From NCBI GenBank assembly GCA_002256025.1, contig NKIB01015205.1:1-37713 (forward strand): a DNA stretch of 37,713 nucleotides. Reading direction: 5' to 3'. The stretch is from Asterionella formosa (taxonomy: Eukaryota). Under the pieces are notes generated by a model. It saw only the letters and a program-made list of their open reading frames with translations, did no database searches and had not been told where the DNA came from. Positions 1,825-37,713 of the stretch are shown one piece after another. The stretch's first letter is position 1. Each line of letters starts with the position of its first letter. The position numbers were made by a program, and so were the translations under genes.

Positions 1825-3960
1825 CTACATTAATCCTATTTCAGTCAGCTCACGTTGTCGGCGCAACACATTAGCTGGAGGCCGCCAAAACGCATTGTTG
1901 GTGACAACTTCAAGGATAATTTGCCGAATCTGTGAAGTACCTTGTACTACATCCAACTTCCTGACAGTTGGAAGATAAGCCCACCCAAGAGGAGCATTGG
2001 GCATTGGATCAACAAGCTCCAAACTAGTAGTCAGAAATTCCATTCCATTTGCAAGTTCTTTCTTTTTATCATCATCCAAAAGTAGTCAAAAGCTGTGTAA
2101 GCGGGCACAAACAGAAAGAACTGCAACTGATTTCTTCAGGCTGAAGGACACCAAAAATGTCCTCAGGATCCACCATTGATTGGTGAGCAACCCGAAAGTC
2201 ATCTCATATGTTAACCTCATTTTTTAAGCGCCTCAGCAGAACTACTCTAGGATTAGTAGGGGAGCTTGCATGGCGCTTCCTGGCGCACCAAGCCTGGATT
2301 TTTTAATTGGAAAAGTTTGTAACCCGGCGCCTAGTATCAACCCAACAGTTGTGGTGACTCTAGGTGCATGTGCGCGGGGATGTAATCGTGGTGGATACAC
2401 TCTCTTGAATGAGAGTTGGAGTTTGTTGTTGTGGTGTCGAAATGCTATGATTAAAAGTCAGTCTCCAGCCTTGGGTTTTAACCGGTGAAGAAAGGTGTGA
2501 TCTTGGTTTTTGAGCGAAAAGTATTTTCGGCCACGCTGAGGTTTGGGGAATGTCTTGAGCTTGAGACTTGTGGGGAAGTGTGCTGTAAAATTGATTTGAA
2601 TACTTTTGTCCTTTTTAGGCCATTTTGACTGACTCTTCAAAGAGGAAATCTGCTTTTTCTAGAAATTTATTTTTCTTTCCCAGATTTGCCTTCATTAGAT
2701 CTGGCAAGAGCTGGAAAAACAGGTGAGAATCCCAGGTGTGTATTGTGTGCTGTTTGAGATAGAGTTGCTTGATTTTTTCATCATATCATGCTGAATGTAG
2801 TATATCCCCATGCTGTCGTTTTTGAAGAGTCTCGTTCCTTTCCTCCCATGTTTTCAATACTAAGCTCCAAATTTGGGAGATTGCGTTTTTAGTCCAGTTC
2901 TGTAACTGAGAATCCGTCATTTCTTGTTTGGGGTGAGATAATATGACCTCACTCCACCTTTTGGTGCCCAAAACAAATATCAATTCTAATGTTTAGTTGT
3001 GAAAGGAAATAGTTGTATGCATCTTTTTTTGTTGATTCCCTTTGACTTCCAACAAATGGACAGAGCACTTGATCAGTCAATGTGTAAGCAGCATCACCTT
3101 CTATGTATTGTCCTGGACGAAAGTTGGATACAATCCTCTGAAAAAGCTGTGTTCTTTCAAATGCCTTCTGAGCGATCTGGACATTTTCCTGGTGCCACGA
3201 CACCAAAGTATAGGAAACAACAATTACTAATGCAAACAGCTTGAACATTCAATGCATGTGACATATAATGCCCAGACCAAAATTCTTGAGGGAAACCATC
3301 ACAATCCCTTTTTCTTGGTTTGTTAATAGGCTGTAAATACCCATCTATAGCACCAACACATCCACGAAATAGTTGCTGCTCGTTTTTTCAAGAAATCAAT
3401 CCATTCATCACGGTTTGTTTCTCCTTGTTTGTTGCTGGAAATTGAATTGATAGTGCTGGGCAAGAGTCCACAGCATCAAGGAATGTTTGAGTTATTGCAT
3501 AAAGAGATGGATAAGAAACTCCATAGACATGATGAATGTCTATGAGTTTTCCGCCTGCAAGCCAGCAAAGTCCGATGGCAAGGATCAACTCAGGATAAAT
3601 ATGCCGATTTGTGCTGTATAAACCGGAACTTGCATTTGATTTGACAACATTAACTGTGAAAGAAGGTCGAAGTAGTTCCAGTAGGTGATTGAAAGCTTGA
3701 AGGGACATGCAATATTCATGATGAAACCTATTCTCATGAAGAAGCTGTGTGACATGATCATTCCAGTCAAGTTGTTGATTCTCCCCTTTTGCTGATCGCA
3801 CAGACTTCGAGTTTTGTGTATAGTATGACTCCAAAAATGATAATGCAACTGCTGCAAGAAACAGAAACCTCTGTTGTTCTTCTTCTATTTCCTGTTCTAG
3901 ATCAAGATTGGCAATGACAGCCCAACTGTCAGGTTCTTCCAGTTGATTTGTCATTGTCAT
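1825..3960 (-). pseudogene. PIF/Harbinger (DDE_Tnp_4-type) transposase pseudogene, interrupted by a LINE fragment
   Basis: Motifs FHHEYCMSLQAF, LAIGLCWLAGG, GCVGAIDG (~3345-3366), GDAAY and YNYFLSQL. The C-terminal EMTFGLLTNQW...CARLHSF...RPPANVLR lies at 1825-2220. Stops and frameshifts are present. Confidence 0.85.
2220..2966 (-). mobile_element. 5'-truncated non-LTR retrotransposon (LINE) 3' fragment
   Basis: ORF 2786-2983 has the W-x-IW-x-W-x-RN pattern (WTKNAISQIWSLVLKTWEERN) typical of LINE ORF2 C-termini. It ends on the minus strand in ...GTAGTTCTGCTGAGGCGCTT plus an A6 tail at 2220-2225, where transposase sequence resumes. Confidence 0.55.
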
Positions 3961-4338: not shown

Positions 4339-6177
4339 ATGCCGCAAGACAAGCTGAAGCTTCGTATCTTTCATGTGAACGATGTCTACCAACTAGACCT
4401 ATTCCCCAATTTCAAGACTTTGGTCGAGAGCAACAAAGGAGACGCCGACAGAGTATTGATAGTGTTAGCAGGTGACTTCCTAGGTCCTTCTTTGTTGAGT
4501 TCATTGGATAAAGGCCGAGGCATGGTGGATACCATGATGAGGTGTGGGTTCACGCATGTCTGCTTTGGGAATCACGAGACAGATGTCCCAACAGAAGCTA
4601 TTGCCGATCGGGTACGTCAATCAAATTTCGTGTGGCTGAATACAAACATGAGGGAGTTGGATGAAAAAATTGACGTAGATACAAGCCCTCATGATGTAAT
4701 CACAGTTAGCAACGGAACATATTCAAAACGAGTAGGTCTGTTGGGACTTTTGACAGAAGATCCTTCTTTGTACAGGCCTGGAAGTTTTGCTGGAGCTGCT
4801 ATCGAACCAGTCTTGGTATGTACCGAAAATTATCTAAGGGATAAAATGCCAAAGGACTGCGATCTCATGATTCCGTTGACTCATCAACGCATGCCTGAAG
4901 ATCGCGATTTCGCCAACAAGTTCACTGGGTCAACGTTCCCACTAATCCTTGGGGGCCACGACCATGATGCCTACGACGAGATTTGCAGCGACTCTCGTAT
5001 CTATAAATGCGGGTATGACGCATTGTTTACAGGGATTATTGACATTGTTTGGGATATTTCAAATGGTAACCTTGCCGAAATTCCAAGGATTGATGTTCGT
5101 CTGGAAGACACCTCGTCCTACAAACCTGATCCCGAAATTGAAAAGTATGTCAATGCTCATCTCTGCATTCTTGAGGAATTGAATAAAGCTAAGCTCTTTC
5201 GGTTCGGGAATTGGATGGACGAAGCAGACGAAAATTCCATGTTCAGCACGTACAATAATCGTTTGGGGCCTTCGAACGGAACTACTATTCTCGCGTCAAT
5301 AATTCGCATGGGCTTAAGGACTCAATGTAGTATTATCAACGCAGGTACGATTCGTGGCAACAAAATATATAACCCTAGGGAGCATGAATGGTTTACATGG
5401 TCAGATTTAAAGGCGGAGATCCCCTTTCCAACAGAAATGGTAGCCATAGAGATCCCTGGTCAGGTTCTATCTGATACTATTGCATACGGCCGTATTGCGA
5501 ACTTAGGCACAGGTGGATACATTCATCACTGCGACGCTATTAAGTGGGATTTTGAGAAGAATTGTATCAAAACAATTCGAGGTGCACCCTTGGTTGCTGA
5601 TCAGATGTATTTGACAGCGTTACCAGCCAAAGCTTTCATGGGACTAGACAATCTCACTCCCCTCTTGGAATGGGCAGAAACCCAACCTTGTCTTGCCTGT
5701 AACGAGGAAAGTGGCCGACCGGCTAAGATTCTAATGGTAGAAATGTTTGCTGCGCTCTTATGGTTGGAAATGGGTTCTTTCGAACAAATCGACACGGACG
5801 GTGATGGAATCTTGACCAGAGACGAAGTCAATCGACAGGCTGCCGCAGTCTTTGGTGAGGAAGTTGCTGACTTGGTCATGGAGAGTATAATGAATGTTGC
5901 CGACTTAAACCGCACTGGAACTATTTCACAGTTGGACATGATGGTGGTTCGATTTGTGGCAACGGATATGATTAATCATGTTTGTACTCATGAAGAACTT
6001 GGCGTCATGCAAACCGTTGTAGAGGAGGTAATGGGTTCTCGTCCATCGTACGCAGATGTTAGGAGGGTTATCAGTGAACTTCGAAATACTTTAGATTTAT
6101 CAGGTGACGGCAAGATTGATCGAGGAGAGGCCATGCAAGCGATTGGTGAAATTAGTAAACGAAGTTTGCTTTCGTGA
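4339..6177 (+). CDS. 5'-nucleotidase/apyrase-family metallophosphoesterase with C-terminal EF-hands
   Basis: Metallophosphoesterase motifs HVNDVY, AGDFL, GNHETD, LTHQ and GGHDH. The 5'-nucleotidase C-domain motif INAGTIRG follows. EF-hand loops DTDGDGILTRDE, DLNRTGTISQLD and DLSGDGKIDRGE. First ATG is at 4339 (4267 is TTG). Confidence 0.88.
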   Translation: MPQDKLKLRIFHVNDVYQLDLFPNFKTLVESNKGDADRVLIVLAGDFLGPSLLSSLDKGRGMVDTMMRCGFTHVCFGNHETDVPTEAIADRVRQSNFVWLNTNMRELDEKIDVDTSPHDVITVSNGTYSKRVGLLGLLTEDPSLYRPGSFAGAAIEPVLVCTENYLRDKMPKDCDLMIPLTHQRMPEDRDFANKFTGSTFPLILGGHDHDAYDEICSDSRIYKCGYDALFTGIIDIVWDISNGNLAEIPRIDVRLEDTSSYKPDPEIEKYVNAHLCILEELNKAKLFRFGNWMDEADENSMFSTYNNRLGPSNGTTILASIIRMGLRTQCSIINAGTIRGNKIYNPREHEWFTWSDLKAEIPFPTEMVAIEIPGQVLSDTIAYGRIANLGTGGYIHHCDAIKWDFEKNCIKTIRGAPLVADQMYLTALPAKAFMGLDNLTPLLEWAETQPCLACNEESGRPAKILMVEMFAALLWLEMGSFEQIDTDGDGILTRDEVNRQAAAVFGEEVADLVMESIMNVADLNRTGTISQLDMMVVRFVATDMINHVCTHEELGVMQTVVEEVMGSRPSYADVRRVISELRNTLDLSGDGKIDRGEAMQAIGEISKRSLLS

Positions 6178-6294: not shown

Positions 6295-7659
6295 TCATAT
6301 TTCTGTGCCATTCTCCTCGCTAAAGTCATCACTAGCATCGATTGCAAATTGCACCAATTCAGCCTCCGTCAAAAGCTGTTCTCTAACAAAGTCCGAAGCT
6401 TGGGCCGTTGTGTTAGAATAAACAAGTTCCATTCGCCTTTCTGGCATCAAGGAAGCGAGATAAATGATAAAAATGGCTTCTTGTGCAGTAAGATTGATGG
6501 TTCTGGTAAGATTCGAACGACAATTGGTGCAGGTTTCATTCAATTTCGGATCAAAAGATGGCTCATCAGGGATAAGAGCTTTTGCGAATTTGAAGATAGC
6601 ATCGACTTGCTTTATCTCGTCGGAATCCATAGGTTTCAGCTGCGGCTGCATCATTTCAAAAACAAACTGTGGCTTCGAGCCAGATTGCGTCCAGAAATCA
6701 ACCACTTGCTCCCACGATACTTCATTGCAATTCAAGTTAGCCAAGAACTCTTTATACATGCTTCGAACACCAGATTGGGCATGAGTGCATCGGAGCAGAA
6801 TAGATACCGGCATGCGCGGCGTATGGTTGTCACCTTGAAAAGTTAACAAAACATAGCCTCTACTTCTGTTGGTCGCTGGATCGACAGGTTGCATCGCATC
6901 GAAAAGCGTTTCTAATTGAACCCAGTGTGCTCCGTACTTGAAGCGCGCTGTGTCTAGAATCAAAACTCGATCGGAGTCTTGATCATACGCAGCAATCGGA
7001 GAAAAGTGTCCCGTTCCAGTCTGCCCCAAGATCTGGCGATCGTAGCTTACCACCAGAAACGGATCAGGCAGTTTCGTCTCAGCCTCGTCGCCTTCTACAC
7101 AAGCTAACTTGACGGCTTCTCGGAAAAAATCTACGGCGCTGTCTTCTGCGTGATGGGTTTCCACTTGCAAGCCTTGACACCTTGCTAGACAGGTAAACGT
7201 TTTGATGGTGATGCCTGTTTGCTTTACTCCTTCCAAATCCATACAGCAATTTAACATTGGCTCTGAATACCACCTCCAGGGTCCTTTCCAAATGCGCCGT
7301 GGATCAACTGCAAGCGCATTCAAGACAATCACCAACGTCGAAATCCCGCAAAAAGCAGGTTCCGACTGCGTCGTAAACTGCTCCATGAGTGGAAAGAATG
7401 ACTTCAAGCCGCGATGCAATAGCGCCGATTCAAAATACTTACGTCCCTCCTTGGACGAGAGCGCAGTGCAGGACGAGGGGAGAGGGCGCCGATAAAAAGT
7501 GACGCGAGGTTTGTCCATTTCCAAGTTTGATGTCATTTCAGGATAAGAGCCGAGAGTACTGGTAATACTGCGAGTGAGGGACCACGGCGGGAATGAGTTG
7601 GCGACGAATGGAAGGATTGACAGGGTGACAAGAAAATGTGACGAGGAGACAGCTAGCAT
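6295..7659 (-). CDS. PCS: Phytochelatin synthase (glutathione gamma-glutamylcysteinyltransferase)
   Basis: FYRRPLP, TQSEPAFCG (catalytic Cys), WKGPWRWY, GHFSPI (His) and LILDTARFKY (Asp). The start is placed at MLAVSS (7659), which begins a signal-peptide-like segment. Confidence 0.93.
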   Translation of the reverse strand: MLAVSSSHFLVTLSILPFVANSFPPWSLTRSITSTLGSYPEMTSNLEMDKPRVTFYRRPLPSSCTALSSKEGRKYFESALLHRGLKSFFPLMEQFTTQSEPAFCGISTLVIVLNALAVDPRRIWKGPWRWYSEPMLNCCMDLEGVKQTGITIKTFTCLARCQGLQVETHHAEDSAVDFFREAVKLACVEGDEAETKLPDPFLVVSYDRQILGQTGTGHFSPIAAYDQDSDRVLILDTARFKYGAHWVQLETLFDAMQPVDPATNRSRGYVLLTFQGDNHTPRMPVSILLRCTHAQSGVRSMYKEFLANLNCNEVSWEQVVDFWTQSGSKPQFVFEMMQPQLKPMDSDEIKQVDAIFKFAKALIPDEPSFDPKLNETCTNCRSNLTRTINLTAQEAIFIIYLASLMPERRMELVYSNTTAQASDFVREQLLTEAELVQFAIDASDDFSEENGTEI

Positions 7660-11673: not shown

Positions 11674-11801
11674 ACCTATTTTGGCAAGAGCAAGCCATTT
11701 TGAGTATGAGCAAGCAAGTCTTGAAATATTCCGGGAATTTCTATATAGTCATTCATGTCTAAACATCTTTTTATATAATGCACTGTTATTTATAACTGCA
11801 A

Positions 11802-11899
11802 AAAATTTGTGTTTGTGTTGACCAAATTTGGTAAACCTGGTAGGCACCCCGAGGTGCTTACCAGGTTTACCAAATTTGGTCAACACAAACACAAATTTT
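11802..11899. repeat. 98-bp near-perfect palindrome (47-bp arms, 4-nt spacer)
   Basis: 11802-11848 is the reverse complement of 11853-11899 with one mismatch. The spacer is CCGA. Confidence 0.95.
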
Positions 11900-12163
11900 G
11901 GGGTTATGGGTACAACGATTTGTGTTATAATACACATGATATAATAATTTTTTATTATCAGAGCGCGCCCAGTATTGGTACCGCTATCTTTACATAAAAC
12001 ATTATAATGGTACGCACCCTGGTCGTACCGGAGGAGTATAATTCTTCTATATTGTGGCGACGACGCAATCTACTTCCGGTCCTCCTACAAGTTGTTATTT
12101 TTTTTTTTTTACTCAGACCAGGTTCCACAAATCATTCTGACTCGACCCATTGCCCGCGCTAAC

Positions 12164-14328: not shown

Positions 14329-14591
14329 TGTCGGAGAAATTATTTTAGGAAAGAAAATCCCGGTATAAATTACGAACGAATCAAAAAGAATATGGTACCA
14401 GAGAAAACTCAAAATTCGAAAACAATCTACGGTACATCACCAGTAAAAGCCATAATTCTACTAAAACTCTTAAGAACGATTACAATTGATTACTGCAACA
14501 TCGTTGTTCATATCTACAGCCTATTTGGTCCCTGATGTGTCCTTACAGGATACAAGAAAGCAATAGGGGGCTTCGGGACACAATTTCTACA
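14329..14591 (+). repeat. 5' LTR
   Basis: TGTCGGAGAA...TTTCTACA, a direct repeat of 19118-19400. Confidence 0.92.
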
Positions 14592-14724
14592 GTTTTAGTA
14601 GAATTAGCCAGCCAGGAAGAGCCATGATATTACAATCAACAACAGGTGGACTGGTGAGAGTCCGGAGACAAGATCTGAGGGTACCAGACCATCCAGAGTC
14701 TGAAGAAGTTGCACAAGGCGCATC

Positions 14725-17700
14725 ATGAGTGGCAAAGGAAAATTTACCAAGAAGGCTCAGGCCAAGGGAGGGAGCAAAAATGCTTCTCACACAATCAAGA
14801 AGTCAGTTAATGACTATAACTACTACCTCAGATCAGTGAAAAGGCACCTGATTATGAGACTACTACTGAGTACCTCATAAATCACTTATCAAGAAAGTGT
14901 TCGACTATGGCAACAACATAGGAACTGCGCTGGAGTTATTAGAACCAATGAGCACATTGGCATGGAAGCCAAGAATGCAAGTGAGCATTGCAACAACAGA
15001 AGAAGATCGCACTGCAGAGAATCAACAATATGAGATTGAGTTCAAGGCTGATTATGACACCTACAGTAAAAGGGTACAGGCCTATGAAAATATGCGTTGC
15101 TCTGGGAAAGATGCAGCAAAGCCATGAAGAACAAGATCGAAGCAAGATCCAATTACAATAGGATCAAAAATTGCCCAATAATATTGCTTATGGCAATTAA
15201 AGAACATGCACAAAATTTTCAAGAAAATCGATATTCTATGTCGATCATTTTAGATGCAATGAGAACGCTTTTATTTACAAAGCAAAAGGAAGGAGAAAGT
15301 CTACAAGACTACACCAAGAGATTTCGTGTGGCACGTGATGTGCTCAAGTCACACATGGGAGGACCCATTATCCTCACCAGGTTCGTTGAATCCATGGATG
15401 GATACAATGAGACCAACATCAAGCTATGAGATAAATTTCGAGAACAAGCTTTCAGTCAATGTATGGCCTATTTATACCTCGATAATGCAGATAAAGCCAA
15501 ATATGGATCAATTATGACCGGGCTGAACACTCAACAATAACTCGGCAACAATCAATACCCGAAGAGCATCAGCGAATCAAATAATGTTCTCAGCAACAAC
15601 CATCGGTTTGATGTAACAAATAAACCCAACAGTCACAATAAACCAGGAGATATTGATAAAGAGAGAGAACAAAAGGATGCATGGAAGGAAGAAGAAGATG
15701 TGAACTTATCGTTTGCACAGTTAGAGAGAAAATGTTACTGCTGCAGTAGAGCAGGTCACAAATCTCCTTCGTGCCGAGACAAGAATAAACCCAAAGCGGA
15801 ATGGGCTATCAACAAGGCCCAACAGAGCCATGCACAGGCACAGGCTAATACATCGGACACGAGTACAGTTACCTCTGTTAATTCCAACAACCCACCATCA
15901 TCACAAGCTTCACAACAAGCAAATGTCAATCAATTTGGATGGGCGGGAGCTCATATGAAACTACAATTTTACCAAGCATCTGAGATGCGTGACTGGATAC
16001 TATTGGATAATCAATCAAGTGTCACAGTCTTTTGCAATCCAAAAATGGTTGAAAACATTCAACTGTCAACCAATGGAAGCATGCACCTGGCCACAAATGG
16101 TGGATCCATGGTCACTTATATGAAGGCTGATCTTCCACAATGGGGAGAAGTATTGTTTAATGAAAAGGCAATCACCAACATCTTCAGTTATGCCGAAATG
16201 TCAGATAGGTACAGAATTACCTAAGACTCTGAGAAAGAAGATGCATTTATTTTTCATTTGCCTGACAAGCCAGTTCGATTTGAAAGAATTGGGATGAACT
16301 TATATGATGTTTTCAAGCCAACTACAAGAATTAGAGCAGAGAATGCTCAAATGTTAAATACACTTGAAGAAAACAAAACATTTTACACTGAGCGTCAATT
16401 TGAAAGAACCAAGCAAGCTCGTGATCTATTTCATGCCTTGGGTACACCATCAATTAATGATTTCAAGGCAATAATTCATATGAATACGATCAACAATAAT
16501 CCAGTGACTACCGATGATATCAAAATTGCAGAGAAAATTTTTGGACCTGACATCGGAACACTAAAAGGCAAGACAACTTGTTGCAAGCGACTGCCAGTCG
16601 TAAACGACAACATCGAGATCCCTAAGGAGCTTATCCAAGCTCAACGCGAAGTGACTCTTTGCATGGATGGAATGAAAGTCAATGGACAATCATTTCTCAC
16701 AACAATTTCTCGAAACATTATGTATAGGACAGCGCAATGGGTCAAGAGTCAGACAGCTGATGTCTATTGAGATGCTTTGACTCAGGTATGCTGTGTTTAT
16801 AATACCGGAAGATTTAAAATTACAACAATCCACTGTAACAACGAGTTTTGACCTTTGATGAAACAATTTTCCAATGAATTTCAAGTCACTATGAACTACG
16901 CAAAACCACAAGAACATGTTCCTGAAGCGGAGCGAAATAATCGAGTGATTAAAGAACGCGTGCGCGCAGCTTATCATCGATTACCTTTCAAACATTTGCC
17001 ACGACTGATGATTAAGATTCTAGTCACCGAATCTGCAAAGAAACTGCATTTCTTTCCGGCAAAGAACGGGATATCCCCATATTACAGTCCTCGTATGGTT
17101 TTACATCAATATAACCTGGACTATGCTCGACATTGCCAGTATACATTTGGCACTTATGTCCAAGCACATGAAGAATCTGTGTTTTCAAAAACTAATGCAC
17201 CACGCAGCCTAGATTGCATTTATCTATGCGACAATGACAACGTGCAAGGAGGTCATGAATTATTACACCTACCTACAAATTCATTGATCACTAGACGAAC
17301 AGTTACTACTCTACCACTTACCCCAGCAATTCAGGAAAATATGCCAGATGGTCTCAAGATATCAAATCGAATGGGACAACCATTTTATGATAGTGCTTGG
17401 ATTGCAGGAGTGGATTATGATAATGAAGCATTTGAAGATGCACAAGATGAAGATTATGAAGATCAACACACTAGTGACAATGAAAGCAATGATGAAATTC
17501 TCGGAGAAGACTATGATGAAATGACTCCGGATGAAAAATATGAAGCAGAACAGCTCAAATTAAACAACAATATCCAAGAGGATGACCCTGAACCTGAGGT
17601 CAACAATGAAATTAATGTTGAAATGAATGCAGATCAAATCCAAGATGAGGATGAAGAACCAGTAAATGAAGCAAACTGAGAATAAAGAGGCAATGTTAGA

Positions 17701-19095
17701 AGTCAATCCAAGCACTGAGGATTTCACAGACCCAAATGTTAGAACCACAAGGTCTGGAAGAGTCTCAAGGCCACCATCAAAACAAACTATGGTCCAACAT
17801 CATTTGCATACCCAAGCACACTGTCAAGAAGGATGCACGACTGATAATGCGAAAGTGATCGTAATGACAATGTGTTATATGAATGAGATGTGTATCGATA
17901 AAGAAGCATTTCACTTTGTTCAGTCATGCAGCTTAAGGAAAGGCCTCAAGAAATTTGGCCAGAAAGGAAGAGATGCCGTGTATAAAGAAATGAAACAACT
18001 ACATGATACAGTTGTATTTAAACCGATTAGGATTGGAGACCTAACAGAGATCGAAAAGCGACACGCAATGGAAAGTCTAATTATTTTGGTTGAAAAGCGA
18101 GACAAGAGTATTAAAGGCAGAGCTTGTGCCAATGGCAGTTCGCAACGTGAATACATGGAAAGAGATGAAGCAGCTAGTCCAACTACCATGACTGAATCTG
18201 TTATGATAACAGCAACAATTGATACAAAGCAAAATCGCGATGTTATGACTGCAGATATACCCAATGCATTTGTGCAAGTGGATATCGACGAGAAAGAAAA
18301 AGGGGAACAAATCATTATGAAGATTAGAGGTTTAGCTGCTTGTCAATATGTTGACAGAACTCAGCCCCGAGACTTATGAAAAATATGTTGTTTATGAAGG
18401 AAACAGCAAGGTCCTATATGTTAGGATGATCAAGGCATTATATGGCATGAAAGGAATGTTCCTATGCAAGCAAGGAAGACAGGACATTCAACCAGGAATT
18501 GCATTTCTGGCAACCCGAACTACCCAACCAAATGAAGGCGATTGGGCAAAATTAGTCAAGATCATGAATTTCTTGAAAGCAACTCAGAATGAGGTTGCAT
18601 CTATGAGTGCTGATGACACTCAGAGCATTAAATGGTACGTTGATGCGGCGTTTGCAGTACACAAAGATTTTAAAAGTCACACAGGAGCTATATTGTCACT
18701 TGGAAATGGAATTTTTTGTTCCATGTCTACAAAACAGAAAGTGAACACTAGAAGTTCGACTGAAGCAGAATTGGTTGGTGTCGATGACATTGTATCAAAG
18801 GTGTTGTGGACGAAATTATTTATTGAAGCACAAGGACACAAGGTGGCTGACTACGAATGTCATTTACCATGACAACACTAGCGCAATGAAGCTAGAAGCA
18901 AATGGAAAAGCAAGTTCAGGAAAACGCATGCAACATTTCAACATCAAGCATTTTTACATTACTGATCTTATTGAAAGAAAGGGAGTACAGATTAAGTACT
19001 GTCCAACGGATGCAATGATTGCAGACTACATGACGAAACCATTGGTTGGAATGAAATTTATTCATTTTCATGAGCAAATTATGAATTCAAAGTGA
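14725..19095 (+). pseudogene. gag-pol pseudogene of the CoDi element
   Basis: Zinc knuckle CYCCSRAGHKSPSC, protease ILLDNQSS, integrase EHVPEAERNNRVIKER, RT N-part ADIPNAFVQ...KALYG, and RNase H WYVDAAFAVH, SSTEAELVG and ADYMTKPL. It has many stops and frameshifts, and the RT core is deleted near 18449. Confidence 0.92.
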
Positions 19096-19117
19096 GCATC
19101 CATGCCCAGCAGGAGTG

Positions 19118-19400
19118 TGTTGGAGAAATTATTTTAGGAAAGAAATTCTTGGTATAACTTACCAACTACATATTGAATCGAATGAATCAAAAAGAATATG
19201 GTACCAGAAAAGACTCAGAATTCGAAAACAATCTACATCACCAGCAGTATAACCCATTATTCTACTAAAACTCTTAGGAACGAATACAATCGATTACTGC
19301 AACATCGTTGTTCATATCTAGCGCCTACCGGTATTTGGTCCCTGACGTGTCCTTACAGGATACAAGAAAGCAATAGAGGGCTTCCAGACGCAATTTCAAC
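19118..19400 (+). repeat. 3' LTR
   Basis: TGTTGGAGAA...TTTCAAC, directly after the PPT. Confidence 0.92.
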
Positions 19401-19596
19401 GATACAAAAAGAATCCGCTGGAACCCGGAGTGTCGAATAAAATATTGTGCTGGCGTGGTCGGCAATACCGGTAGCTAAATGTCGTAGGATGTTGTATGTA
19501 AAATCACAAATGTGTTCTTCTCGTGCGTTCACATGTGTTCTGTGTTACCGAAAAGTCAATACCGGTAAGTTCACCTCACTTTTCAAGACGAGTAGC

Positions 19597-33026: not shown

Positions 33027-33871
33027 AATGGTGATCATTGCCAGTTAAATTGAAAATATCCAGATAAACTATCTATTCGGAAATGTGCTTCCATCAGTGA
33101 CAATGATTGTAACTAGAACCTCCTACTTACCATACTCCGTACAATGATTCTCAGCAGCATGGATGGCCATAATCAGTAGACCACCTGTCTATAAATTGAC
33201 AAACATATAACACTCTGTCAGCTAGACTTCAGCATTTGTGCAGCTTCTTCTGTTAAGACATCGACCCTGGAGTAATTTCAGATAAGAATGCCCAATATTT
33301 CTATGCCAGCCAGCTACCAATTATATCATAAAGAAACAGGATAAAATTCTAGTTTTTTTAATGGCTGCACTTCTGTCAACCCTAATGGGAGGTAGTGTTT
33401 AGAACGAAAAATTAGTCGGATGATAGTCGAGCAAACACTTGTTTGTACTTAGTACCATGGTATTGGAACTCAATAACTTTGGCACTAATTTGCAAACCAG
33501 TGTGTACTTAGGAATGATATTCACTCTCATTTTGCTTTGCACATTGACAGAAGTTAGCTTTTAAAAATAGAAGATACATCATGTATGCTCACTCTACTCA
33601 GTTTCCTAATGTAAAAAGTTTTGGGCTAGTGTCATATTTGCTGACAAAAACTAGTTTGTATCACACTTTTCTGTATCATGGCTAGCACTTTCATCATCCT
33701 TTGTGGAAATGCAATACAAATAGTCTAAATAGTTGCAGCTATTCAGTCTAATCAAAGGAATAACCAAGCATAGCCAACTGAGAATCCCAGTGCACCTAAT
33801 TGAGAAATATGTAATTTTTCCCCGTAGTGTGAAAACGTCTTTCACCAGACTTTCCAGTAATATTCAGTCTA

Positions 33872-34005
33872 AATAATCTCAAGATAATACCTGTCATCTG
33901 TCAAAACTTTCTCAGCATCATCAATATTCTGATCCAATTCAGGTATCAGTCTCAATAATCTCAAGATTATACCTGTTGTCTATCAAAAATTTCTCAGCAT
34001 CATCA
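33872..34005. repeat. Diverged direct duplication (~52-bp units, 82 bp apart) in a decayed AT-rich region
   Basis: AATAATCTCAAGAT..TACCTGT...TCAAAA..TTCTCAGCATCATCA at 33872 and 33954. Confidence 0.75.
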
Positions 34006-35680: not shown

Positions 35681-35787
35681 CACCAGGTTTTATGCAAGTT
35701 GCGGTAATTTTGCTCAACTAAAGATTTAGCTATTTTTATCCAAGATTAAATTGTTGATTTAAGCAAAATGACCGCAACTTGCTGGTA
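35681..35787. mobile_element. Miniature inverted-repeat element (CCAG...CTGG|TA family)
   Basis: GCAAGTTGCGGTAATTTTGCT (~35694) is the reverse complement of AGCAAAATGACCGCAACTTGC (~35762) with one mismatch. Its right end is shared with 4174-4240. Confidence 0.65.
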
Positions 35788-36972: not shown

Positions 36973-37273
36973 GCTGATAATGTGATTGGTTGTGCTAGGA
37001 GTACAAAGTATAAGAGTCACCCTAGAGTAGAGAGTTTGACAACACCCCACAAGCAACTCAAAAATAGATGGAAGCAGCCTTCAAAATCATCATTAAGGTT
37101 GCGGCTCCGCAGTTACACATCGCGAGGTCATTTTTTCCCAAAGTAATTTTATGATGTACTTCAATCTACACAGTATGTACAACGAAATGAAATAGTTAAA
37201 GGTAAAATTAGCTTTCACCAATACGACCACTTTGCATATGCTTAGATACAGTCATGGGTCGACTTAGGGGTAT

Positions 37274-37557
37274 TGTTGAATATGTGTAACGGACACGTCG
37301 GTAACGGTTACACCAATTTCACCGATACTGACAGTGACCACACCAACCATGCCAGCGCGCAAACTAACGAACAAGACTGGACTACAGTTGAATCAAGGCA
37401 TTTCAGGATTAGAAATAGAGTGTCTGGTACCAGCGAAACTGGCTCACTTTCATTTAATTATTTGGTTTTATAAACGATACCATCCCGGTGTGCTTTTATC
37501 GTCGGATTCGTTGTTTTATGGACACGAAGACATATTGAGAACATTGTGGTTTCAACA
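37274..37557 (+). repeat. 5' LTR of a second LTR retrotransposon
   Basis: Terminal inverted repeats TGTTGAA...TTCAACA, 284 bp long, followed after 22 nt by a gag-like ORF. The partner LTR would lie outside the window. Confidence 0.7.
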
Positions 37558-37579
37558 TAATTAAATTAAAGTAAATAAG

Positions 37580-37713
37580 ATGGACAAGGTGAAAACAGAA
37601 GGTGGGGACGCCGCCACGAAGGTTGACAAGGATTTCGGCATTGATGCCAAGAAAAGAGGTCGCTTCAACTTCGGAAAGCAACAGGCATCCCGGACACCAG
37701 CCGCAACAAAATT
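37580..37713 (+). CDS. Partial gag N-terminus of the second LTR element (runs off the window)
   Basis: Open from the ATG: MDKVKTEGGDAATKVDKDFGIDAKKRGRFNFGKQQASRTPAATK..., hydrophilic and basic like CoDi gag starts. Confidence 0.5.
   Translation, partial: MDKVKTEGGDAATKVDKDFGIDAKKRGRFNFGKQQASRTPAATK

Follow-up and report, generated by a model that had tools for sequence, protein, structure and literature searches.

Element 2, an LTR retrotransposon whose 5′ end lies at the end of the window (i.e., the whole 37,713-nt stretch of DNA analysed here), most likely primes its own reverse transcription in the manner of Tf1, rather than by a tRNA. This reading is built on the bases that adjoin its 5′ LTR, i.e., the predicted primer-binding site (PBS), and on a complementary segment further upstream in the same LTR, at which the transcript is predicted to begin. 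The features of element 2 are as follows:

37269..37273 (+): GGTAT, host flank directly 5′ of the LTR, candidate target-site duplication
37274..37557 (+): 5′ LTR of element 2, 284 nt, TGTTG...CAACA, aligned to the same-family copies L001-L003
37274..37445 (+): predicted U3, with its boundary placed by the arm start and the initiator-like motif
37444..37448 (+): TCACT, match to the diatom initiator-like motif TCAH(+1)W, predicted transcription start at A37446 or C37447
37446..37461 (+): upstream arm, predicted self-primer (first 15-16 nt of the transcript), ACTTTCATTTAATTAT, with a mismatch at C37451 peculiar to this copy
37474..37502 (+): internal hairpin ACGATA...TATCGT in R/U5, stem halves 37474-37479 and 37497-37502
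37557..37572 (+): downstream arm, the predicted PBS, ATAATTAAATTAAAGT, starting at the terminal A of the LTR and lacking TGG
37580..37711 (+): start of the gag ORF, first 44 codons, 100% identical to P0001; the ORF runs off the window

The ends of this LTR are fixed independently, i.e., contigs from public runs diverge before L001:1787 and after L001:2071/2072, which correspond to window positions 37274 and 37557. Alignment to L001-L003 agrees at the 5′ side, where identity begins only at 37274, excluding the GGTAT flank. The two arms are 16 nt each with 95 nt between them, and they are complementary at 15/16 positions; the sole mismatch is C37451 vs. T37567, and the longest perfect run in the duplex of the window copy is 10 nt. 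Fifteen of the 16 bases of the PBS arm (94%) are A/T. The gag ATG at 37580 lies 23 nt after the LTR and 8 nt after the downstream arm, and no TGG occurs between the LTR end and this ATG. No Rfam match was returned over 37200-37713 at E ≤ 1, and ARAGORN found 0 tRNA genes in the window. The initial annotation had described 37446-37461 and 37557-37572 as reverse complements at 15/16 positions, which is exact, and it was also right about the missing TGG, about the ACGATA...TATCGT stem, and about the duplex starting at the terminal A of the LTR in both elements of the window (A37557 in element 2 and A14591 in element 1). Its claim that the two elements have a similar spacing holds only roughly, with 95 nt between the arms in element 2 vs. 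122 nt in element 1.

The complementarity of the element 2 arms is not a product of chance. Comparison with shuffled LTRs had been proposed in the initial annotation, and among 2000 dinucleotide shuffles of the element 2 LTR, none contained an LTR-end-anchored match of at least 14 nt with at most one mismatch, the longest being 13 nt. The 16-mer of element 2, allowed up to 2 mismatches across the whole window, has two matches (itself and its partner) vs. 0.05 expected. An empirical inverted-repeat scan of the window, which retains the real local composition, gave 44/37413 start positions with a partner matching at 15/16 or better no more than 284 nt upstream. These fall in four loci, i.e., 11801-11900, 35694-35782, the LTR/PBS pair of element 1 (14452-14470 / 14589-14607) and that of element 2, and the latter two sit exactly at LTR ends. 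The 10-nt perfect run of the window copy, taken by itself, is equalled by 6/1000 shuffles in one count and by 2/1000 in a second. A fortuitous match between two AT-rich stretches would be in keeping with the composition of the PBS arm and with the one mismatch in the window copy. However, it is dismissed because the shuffles never equal the match, because only four such loci occur in 37.7 kb, two of them at LTR ends, because the mismatch is restored in relatives, and because four other families exhibit the same geometry with other sequences (both described below); its probability is negligible.

The window contains further repeats. The strongest inverted repeat is the near-perfect palindrome of ~100 nt at 11801-11900, with arms of ~48 nt and a 4-nt centre. 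The inverted repeat at 35694-35782 spans 21 nt with one mismatch (AAGTTGCGGTAATTTTGCT.../...AGCAAAATGACCGCAACTT), its arms ~47 nt apart in an AT-rich stretch. Two 60-nt direct repeats, 90% identical and spaced by 82 nt, are found at 33864-34005 in a low-GC stretch.

The 44-residue gag start matches a cluster of short metagenome proteins, and a scan of metagenome contigs yielded three loci of the same family, L001-L003, which share ~96% identity with the window over the LTR and leader. From the upstream arm to the ATG, the four copies differ in three respects only, i.e., the base at the mismatch position, the length of a T-run in U5, and, in L002 and L003, an additional T immediately after the PBS arm. 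The position of C37451 is occupied by A in L001 and L003, giving a perfect 16/16 duplex, by G in L002, giving a G:U pair, and by C only in the window copy, whereas the PBS arm is invariant in 4/4 copies. A family consensus at 37567/37451, a check raised at the outset, restores the duplex in this way, with A in 2/4 copies and G (G:U) in 1/4. The ACGATA/TATCGT hairpin is likewise invariant in 4/4 copies, and being invariant it provides no covariation evidence.

The same copies supply the pol gene, which in the window lies beyond the end of element 2. In L001-L003 the order is the 3′ end of pol, then the LTR, then gag, which is either a tandem arrangement or the joining of two LTR copies by the assembler. 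The reverse transcriptase (RT) of L001 is of the Pfam RVT_2 type, i.e., the Ty1/copia type (E 1.8e-15), and RVT_2 is also found in the more distant loci L008 (E 1.8e-16) and L009 (E 1.1e-22). An RNase H-like region is the last domain before the polypurine tract and LTR in L001-L003. The copia pol expected for this element is thereby found in its relatives, with an RVT_2-type RT and with RNase H directly before the LTR, and on the type of their RT the elements are assigned to the Ty1/copia superfamily (Pseudoviridae), for which the domain order gag-PR-IN-RT-RH and a 5-bp target-site duplication would be expected. The gag-side frame of L001 is open over 2079-3122 (347 aa stop to stop), or 342 aa from the ATG at 2094, and the 1697-residue frame of L008 contains a CCHC knuckle at 346-362 and RVT_2 at 1218-1444, followed by an RNase H-like part only. 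No integrase was detected by Pfam (E ≤ 1) or by a PDB sequence search of the proteins of the elements. A sequence 'PEAER' precedes the RT in element 1 and in L005, which we take to be an integrase-like motif.

We also observed that the pol frame continues through the polypurine tract (...HRSVL) and ~180-200 nt into the 3′ LTR, e.g., at L001:1787-1965, and likewise in L003, L006, L007 and L012. The LTR region that encodes this tail corresponds to window 37274-37455. The tail has a recurring motif, (D/E)x(G/E)(W/F)xxVxx(K/R), followed by basic residues, and the recurrence of this motif makes part of U3 look coding. In intact relatives, the 3′ LTR copy of U3 encodes the C-terminal tail of pol. 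The pol stop codon TAA lies inside the self-primer arm in L001 and directly after the arm in L012, and C37451 of the window copy abolishes the TAA stop within the arm.

The geometry of element 2 recurs in further families. Element 1, the other copia element of the window, provides one of these, and a scan of genome contigs with a pol alignment yielded nine more loci, L004-L012, on contigs in bins labelled bacterial. The arm comparison covers L008, L009 and L012, which have the LTR-gag junction and enough upstream LTR; outside it are L005, which has the junction with 98 nt of LTR only, and L004, L006, L007, L010 and L011, which are without the junction. For L008, L009 and L012, we placed the LTR ends from the conserved terminal motif and the conserved start of the LTR after the polypurine tract (...AGGAGTG|TGTTG...), rather than from a comparison of two LTR copies. 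The comparators are as follows:

14329..14591 (+): 5′ LTR of element 1, with the 3′ LTR copy at ~19118-19401
14453..14468 (+): upstream arm of element 1, TAATTCTACTAAAACT, perfect over 16 nt and equalled by 0/1000 shuffles
14591..14606 (+): PBS of element 1, AGTTTTAGTAGAATTA, starting at the terminal A of its LTR
L008: pol 62% identical to L001 (tblastn), perfect duplex of 15 nt, arm starting at the terminal A of ...TTTCAACA
L012: pol 58% identical to L001 (tblastn), perfect duplex of 15 nt, arm starting at the terminal A of ...TTTCAATA
L009: pol 42% identical to L001 (tblastn), perfect duplex of 12 nt, arm starting one base after ...CTCAACA

In these five families (element 2 being represented by L001), the perfect duplex is 12-16 nt long and starts at the terminal A of the LTR in four, and one base later in L009. 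The upstream arm begins 113-152 nt before the LTR end, and the gap from the LTR to the gag ATG is 16-36 nt. Shuffles equalled the perfect length in 0 of 1000 cases for L001, L008 and L012, as for element 1, and in 2 of 1000 for L009. When each PBS was compared with the LTRs of the other families as a control, the match was 0-6 nt in a foreign LTR vs. 12-16 nt in its own, with one exception, i.e., 10 nt between element 2 and L009. At the sequence level, then, the arm and the PBS co-vary across the five families, and the proposal in the initial annotation of a clade-wide geometry with different sequence extends to L008, L009 and L012. The RT/RNase H fragments of element 1 are 45-51% identical to L001.

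Several features of these comparators are noted in their own right. Element 1 (14329-19401) is a degenerate copia copy with many frame breaks, its LTRs are ~90% identical, and its 3′ LTR ends in ...CAACG, not ...CA. It is flanked by GATAG on one side and, provided that the terminal A of the 3′ LTR has been lost, by GATAC on the other, which is ambiguous as a target-site duplication. The LTR end of L005, a relative with 62% identity, falls within a local 11-nt hairpin (AATACTTTCAA / TAGAAAGTATT) at 87-119. L008 (ends 1-141 = 5432-5572), L009 (ends 1-125 = 6567-6691) and L001-L003 show the order pol-LTR-gag or are circular permutations of one element with a single LTR; such contigs could be assembler collapses of two LTRs, true tandems or 1-LTR circles. 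For Tf elements, tandems with a single LTR between the copies are known to arise through PBS homology (PMC11042837). L004-L012 are diatom-type copia elements on contigs in bins labelled bacteria, and these contigs are probably mis-binned eukaryotic sequence; in L004, a truncated element is joined to GC-rich, bacterial-looking frames.

The PBS sequences differ among the five families and TGG is found at the PBS start in none of them (0/5), which bears directly on whether a tRNA or a piece of one is the primer, as it is in Drosophila copia, Osser and Bianca. A composition such as that of the element 2 PBS, with 15/16 A/T, is unlike nuclear tRNA sequence, and the Rfam search over 37200-37713 described above was also empty. 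According to PMC6317226 and PMC5445492, tRNA-primed lineages retain one PBS. The superfamily itself lends such priming some plausibility, since priming by a half-tRNA is reported as confined to Ty1/copia lineages (PMC6317226). The PBS of element 2 (37558-37569) and that of L009 have a common core, AATTAAATTA, despite pol sequences that are only 42% identical. This 10-nt core would be explicable by a common trans-acting primer; it could equally reflect shared descent of the primer or chance in AT-rich sequence. Set against the five dissimilar PBS sequences and the absence of TGG, priming by a tRNA or tRNA fragment is very improbable here.

Self-priming would account for the position of the duplex as well as for its sequence. 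In reverse transcription, minus-strand synthesis begins at the 3′ edge of the 5′ LTR, and the primer must therefore anneal to the bases adjoining this edge. Since these bases differ among families, lack TGG, and match their own LTR at the predicted start of the RNA, self-priming is the best-supported reading. The rule given in PMC6317226 for predicting self-primers asks for a stretch of 10 bp or more that starts 0-5 bp past the 5′ LTR and is complementary to part of that LTR, and the element 2 family conforms to this rule. In the proposed mechanism, the PBS (37557/8-37572, the 15-16 nt adjoining the LTR) would pair with the predicted 5′ end of the transcript (37446-37461). Transcription would begin at the TCA|C initiator-like motif, and the first 15-16 nt of the RNA would fold back over ~95 nt of R-U5 to pair with the PBS. 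The RNase H of the element itself would then cut the RNA at the end of the duplex, after U37461, and the freed 3′ OH would prime minus-strand strong-stop DNA. Priming from this 3′ OH would explain why the LTR ends exactly where the duplex begins.

The predicted transcription start is suggested by the motif TCAH(+1)W, which has been proposed as a diatom initiator-like motif (PMC4686930). Each LTR contains only 1-4 occurrences of TCAHW, and its +1 base falls on the arm start or one base after it in 4/5 families (element 2, L008, L009 and L012), whereas element 1 has CCATA there. The motif is loose, being present in 68% of the 80-nt 5′ flanks of Phaeodactylum (P. tricornutum) genes. An initiator-like motif at the arm start fits the arm as the 5′ end of the RNA, i.e., the predicted start. 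TATAAA at 37468-37473 may be a TATA box, which would place the arm in U3, or just as well a polyA signal. Three RNA libraries (X16, X17 and X18) contain the family as contigs, which by their nature cannot reveal RNA ends. Contigs of the polyA library X17 cover L001:1994-3113 only, the breaks of RNA contigs near L001:1994-2010 coincide with the T-run length polymorphism at 2007, and no polyA loose ends are listed among the RNA contigs on L001.

We also folded the predicted leader, taken as the sequence that begins with the arm and ends shortly beyond the ATG. For each of the window copy, L001 and element 1, the minimum-energy and centroid folds alike are closed by the arm/PBS duplex, with z-scores of −2.6 for L001 and −2.3 for element 1, vs. 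−0.83 for the window copy, whose fold as a whole is no stabler than those of its shuffles. The ACGATA/TATCGT hairpin appears in the minimum-energy fold of the window copy and is absent from that of L001. A duplex that closes the leader fold, with the gag ATG close behind the arm, might have been selected for a step other than priming, e.g., leader folding in packaging or in dimer formation, cyclisation, or the regulation of gag translation, with a host RNA serving as the primer. Hairpins at the PBS position are known from other copia clades, e.g., the 'conserved hairpin site' of fungal GalEa (PMC5445492). However, the downstream arm lies exactly at the LTR edge, where a primer must anneal, in five families, the 16-36 nt ahead of the ATG leave room for no other candidate PBS, and a host primer would need to differ per family. 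Selection for such another step is thus an unlikely account of the duplex.

A closer relative of the proposed mechanism is the same pairing in trans, in which two genomic RNAs packaged together would be involved, one providing the PBS and the other the primer, either from its 5′ end or from its 3′ copy of R. Pairing in cis and in trans is indistinguishable from sequence alone, and the 3′ LTR copy also carries the arm. However, Tf1, the sole tested case, is described in PMC7175516 as a fold-back in one RNA followed by RNase H cleavage, and the kept R-U5 spacing of 113-152 nt across families suggests an intramolecular loop. Priming in trans is accordingly rated as quite improbable, and self-priming by fold-back within one RNA is the form of the mechanism that we compare with known systems below.

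The first comparison is with Tf1 and Tf2 of Schizosaccharomyces pombe, in the Tf1/sushi group, in which, as is predicted here, the PBS complements the first RNA bases of the element itself, not a tRNA. The Tf1 duplex involves bases 1-11 of the RNA, and the RNase H cut falls between bases 11 and 12 (PMC7175516). The predicted fold-back across R-U5 is a further likeness, and the PBS of Tf1 also starts with A (ATAAC..., PMC11042837). We note three differences. First, the Tf1/sushi elements are Ty3/gypsy chromoviruses, whereas the elements described here are Ty1/copia (RVT_2, with RNase H last). Second, the duplex is 12-16 nt here, longer than that of Tf1. Third, the host is a diatom, and the mechanism here is predicted from sequence. 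Membership in the Tf1/sushi clade itself, which would entail a gypsy RT and an integrase after RNase H, along with a chromodomain, was considered and is ruled out by the RVT_2 RT and by RNase H being last before the polypurine tract and LTR; because their RT is of the copia type, the elements do not belong to that clade.

Within Ty1/copia, the plant TAR lineage (including Houba and Osr-1) is predicted to self-prime (PMC6317226). It belongs to the same superfamily as the elements here, and the prediction is drawn from the same kind of sequence evidence; however, its hosts are land plants. Tf1 is thus a proven self-primer and the plant TAR copia elements are predicted ones, and the diatom copia clade joins the latter. 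The fungal GalEa copia elements are also without a tRNA-type PBS, and the terminal A of the 5′ LTR is part of the sequence that is conserved in them; however, they possess a local palindrome or hairpin for which their authors found no complementary LTR sequence, whereas the partner here lies 113-152 nt upstream in the LTR (PMC5445492 for GalEa). The CoDi copia elements (Blackbeard, Surcouf and others; Maumus et al. 2009, PMC2806351) have both the diatom host group and the superfamily in common with the elements here. A term search of that paper gave no mention of tRNA, priming or polypurine, and 'PBS' denotes only a buffer there. In the available parts of PMC5445492 and PMC3601003, self-priming is mentioned only for other groups. 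No report of self-priming in diatom copia elements was found in the literature searched, which included few subscription journals and no supplements.

The genes of the window are eukaryotic, including phytochelatin synthase, ribosomal protein L5, AAR2 and others, and the best named relatives of the L5 protein are all diatoms, at 79-84% identity; judged by these genes, the host is a diatom. The closest named relative of pol is an RT of Fragilaria crotonensis (70% identity), and the Atlas clusters nearest to pol are diatom and red-alga RVT_2 proteins, which we regard as a lead only. Public data contain 3743 relatives of pol at E ≤ 1e-20, and scans of viral contigs, both with a single protein and with an alignment, returned none. 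Among the 20 runs listed with the element or part of it, those labelled as metagenomes are mainly from freshwater, lake, river and estuary.

Much of the transposable-element content of diatoms consists of copia elements, some of which become active under stress (PMC2806351). A self-primer would explain why LTR annotation tools that seek tRNA-type sites would mark elements such as these as lacking a PBS. The co-varying arm/PBS pair would offer a simple, testable rule for annotating active copies, and it would be a handle for marked-element experiments in transformable diatoms. Self-priming in this clade would add a third lineage to the few that do without tRNA primers, and bears on the question of whether hairpin priming is ancestral or has evolved repeatedly. 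More tentatively, and with slightly less than even confidence, we propose that self-priming is ancestral and clade-wide in a large diatom copia radiation, that it arose independently of that in the Tf1/sushi gypsy elements (fungal and vertebrate) and in the plant TAR copia elements, and that a handful of bases at the U3/R border hold the primer and the transcription start together and, in some families, the pol stop as well. If this is true, one short motif at the U3/R border would set where transcription starts, where translation of pol ends, and where priming of the cDNA occurs.
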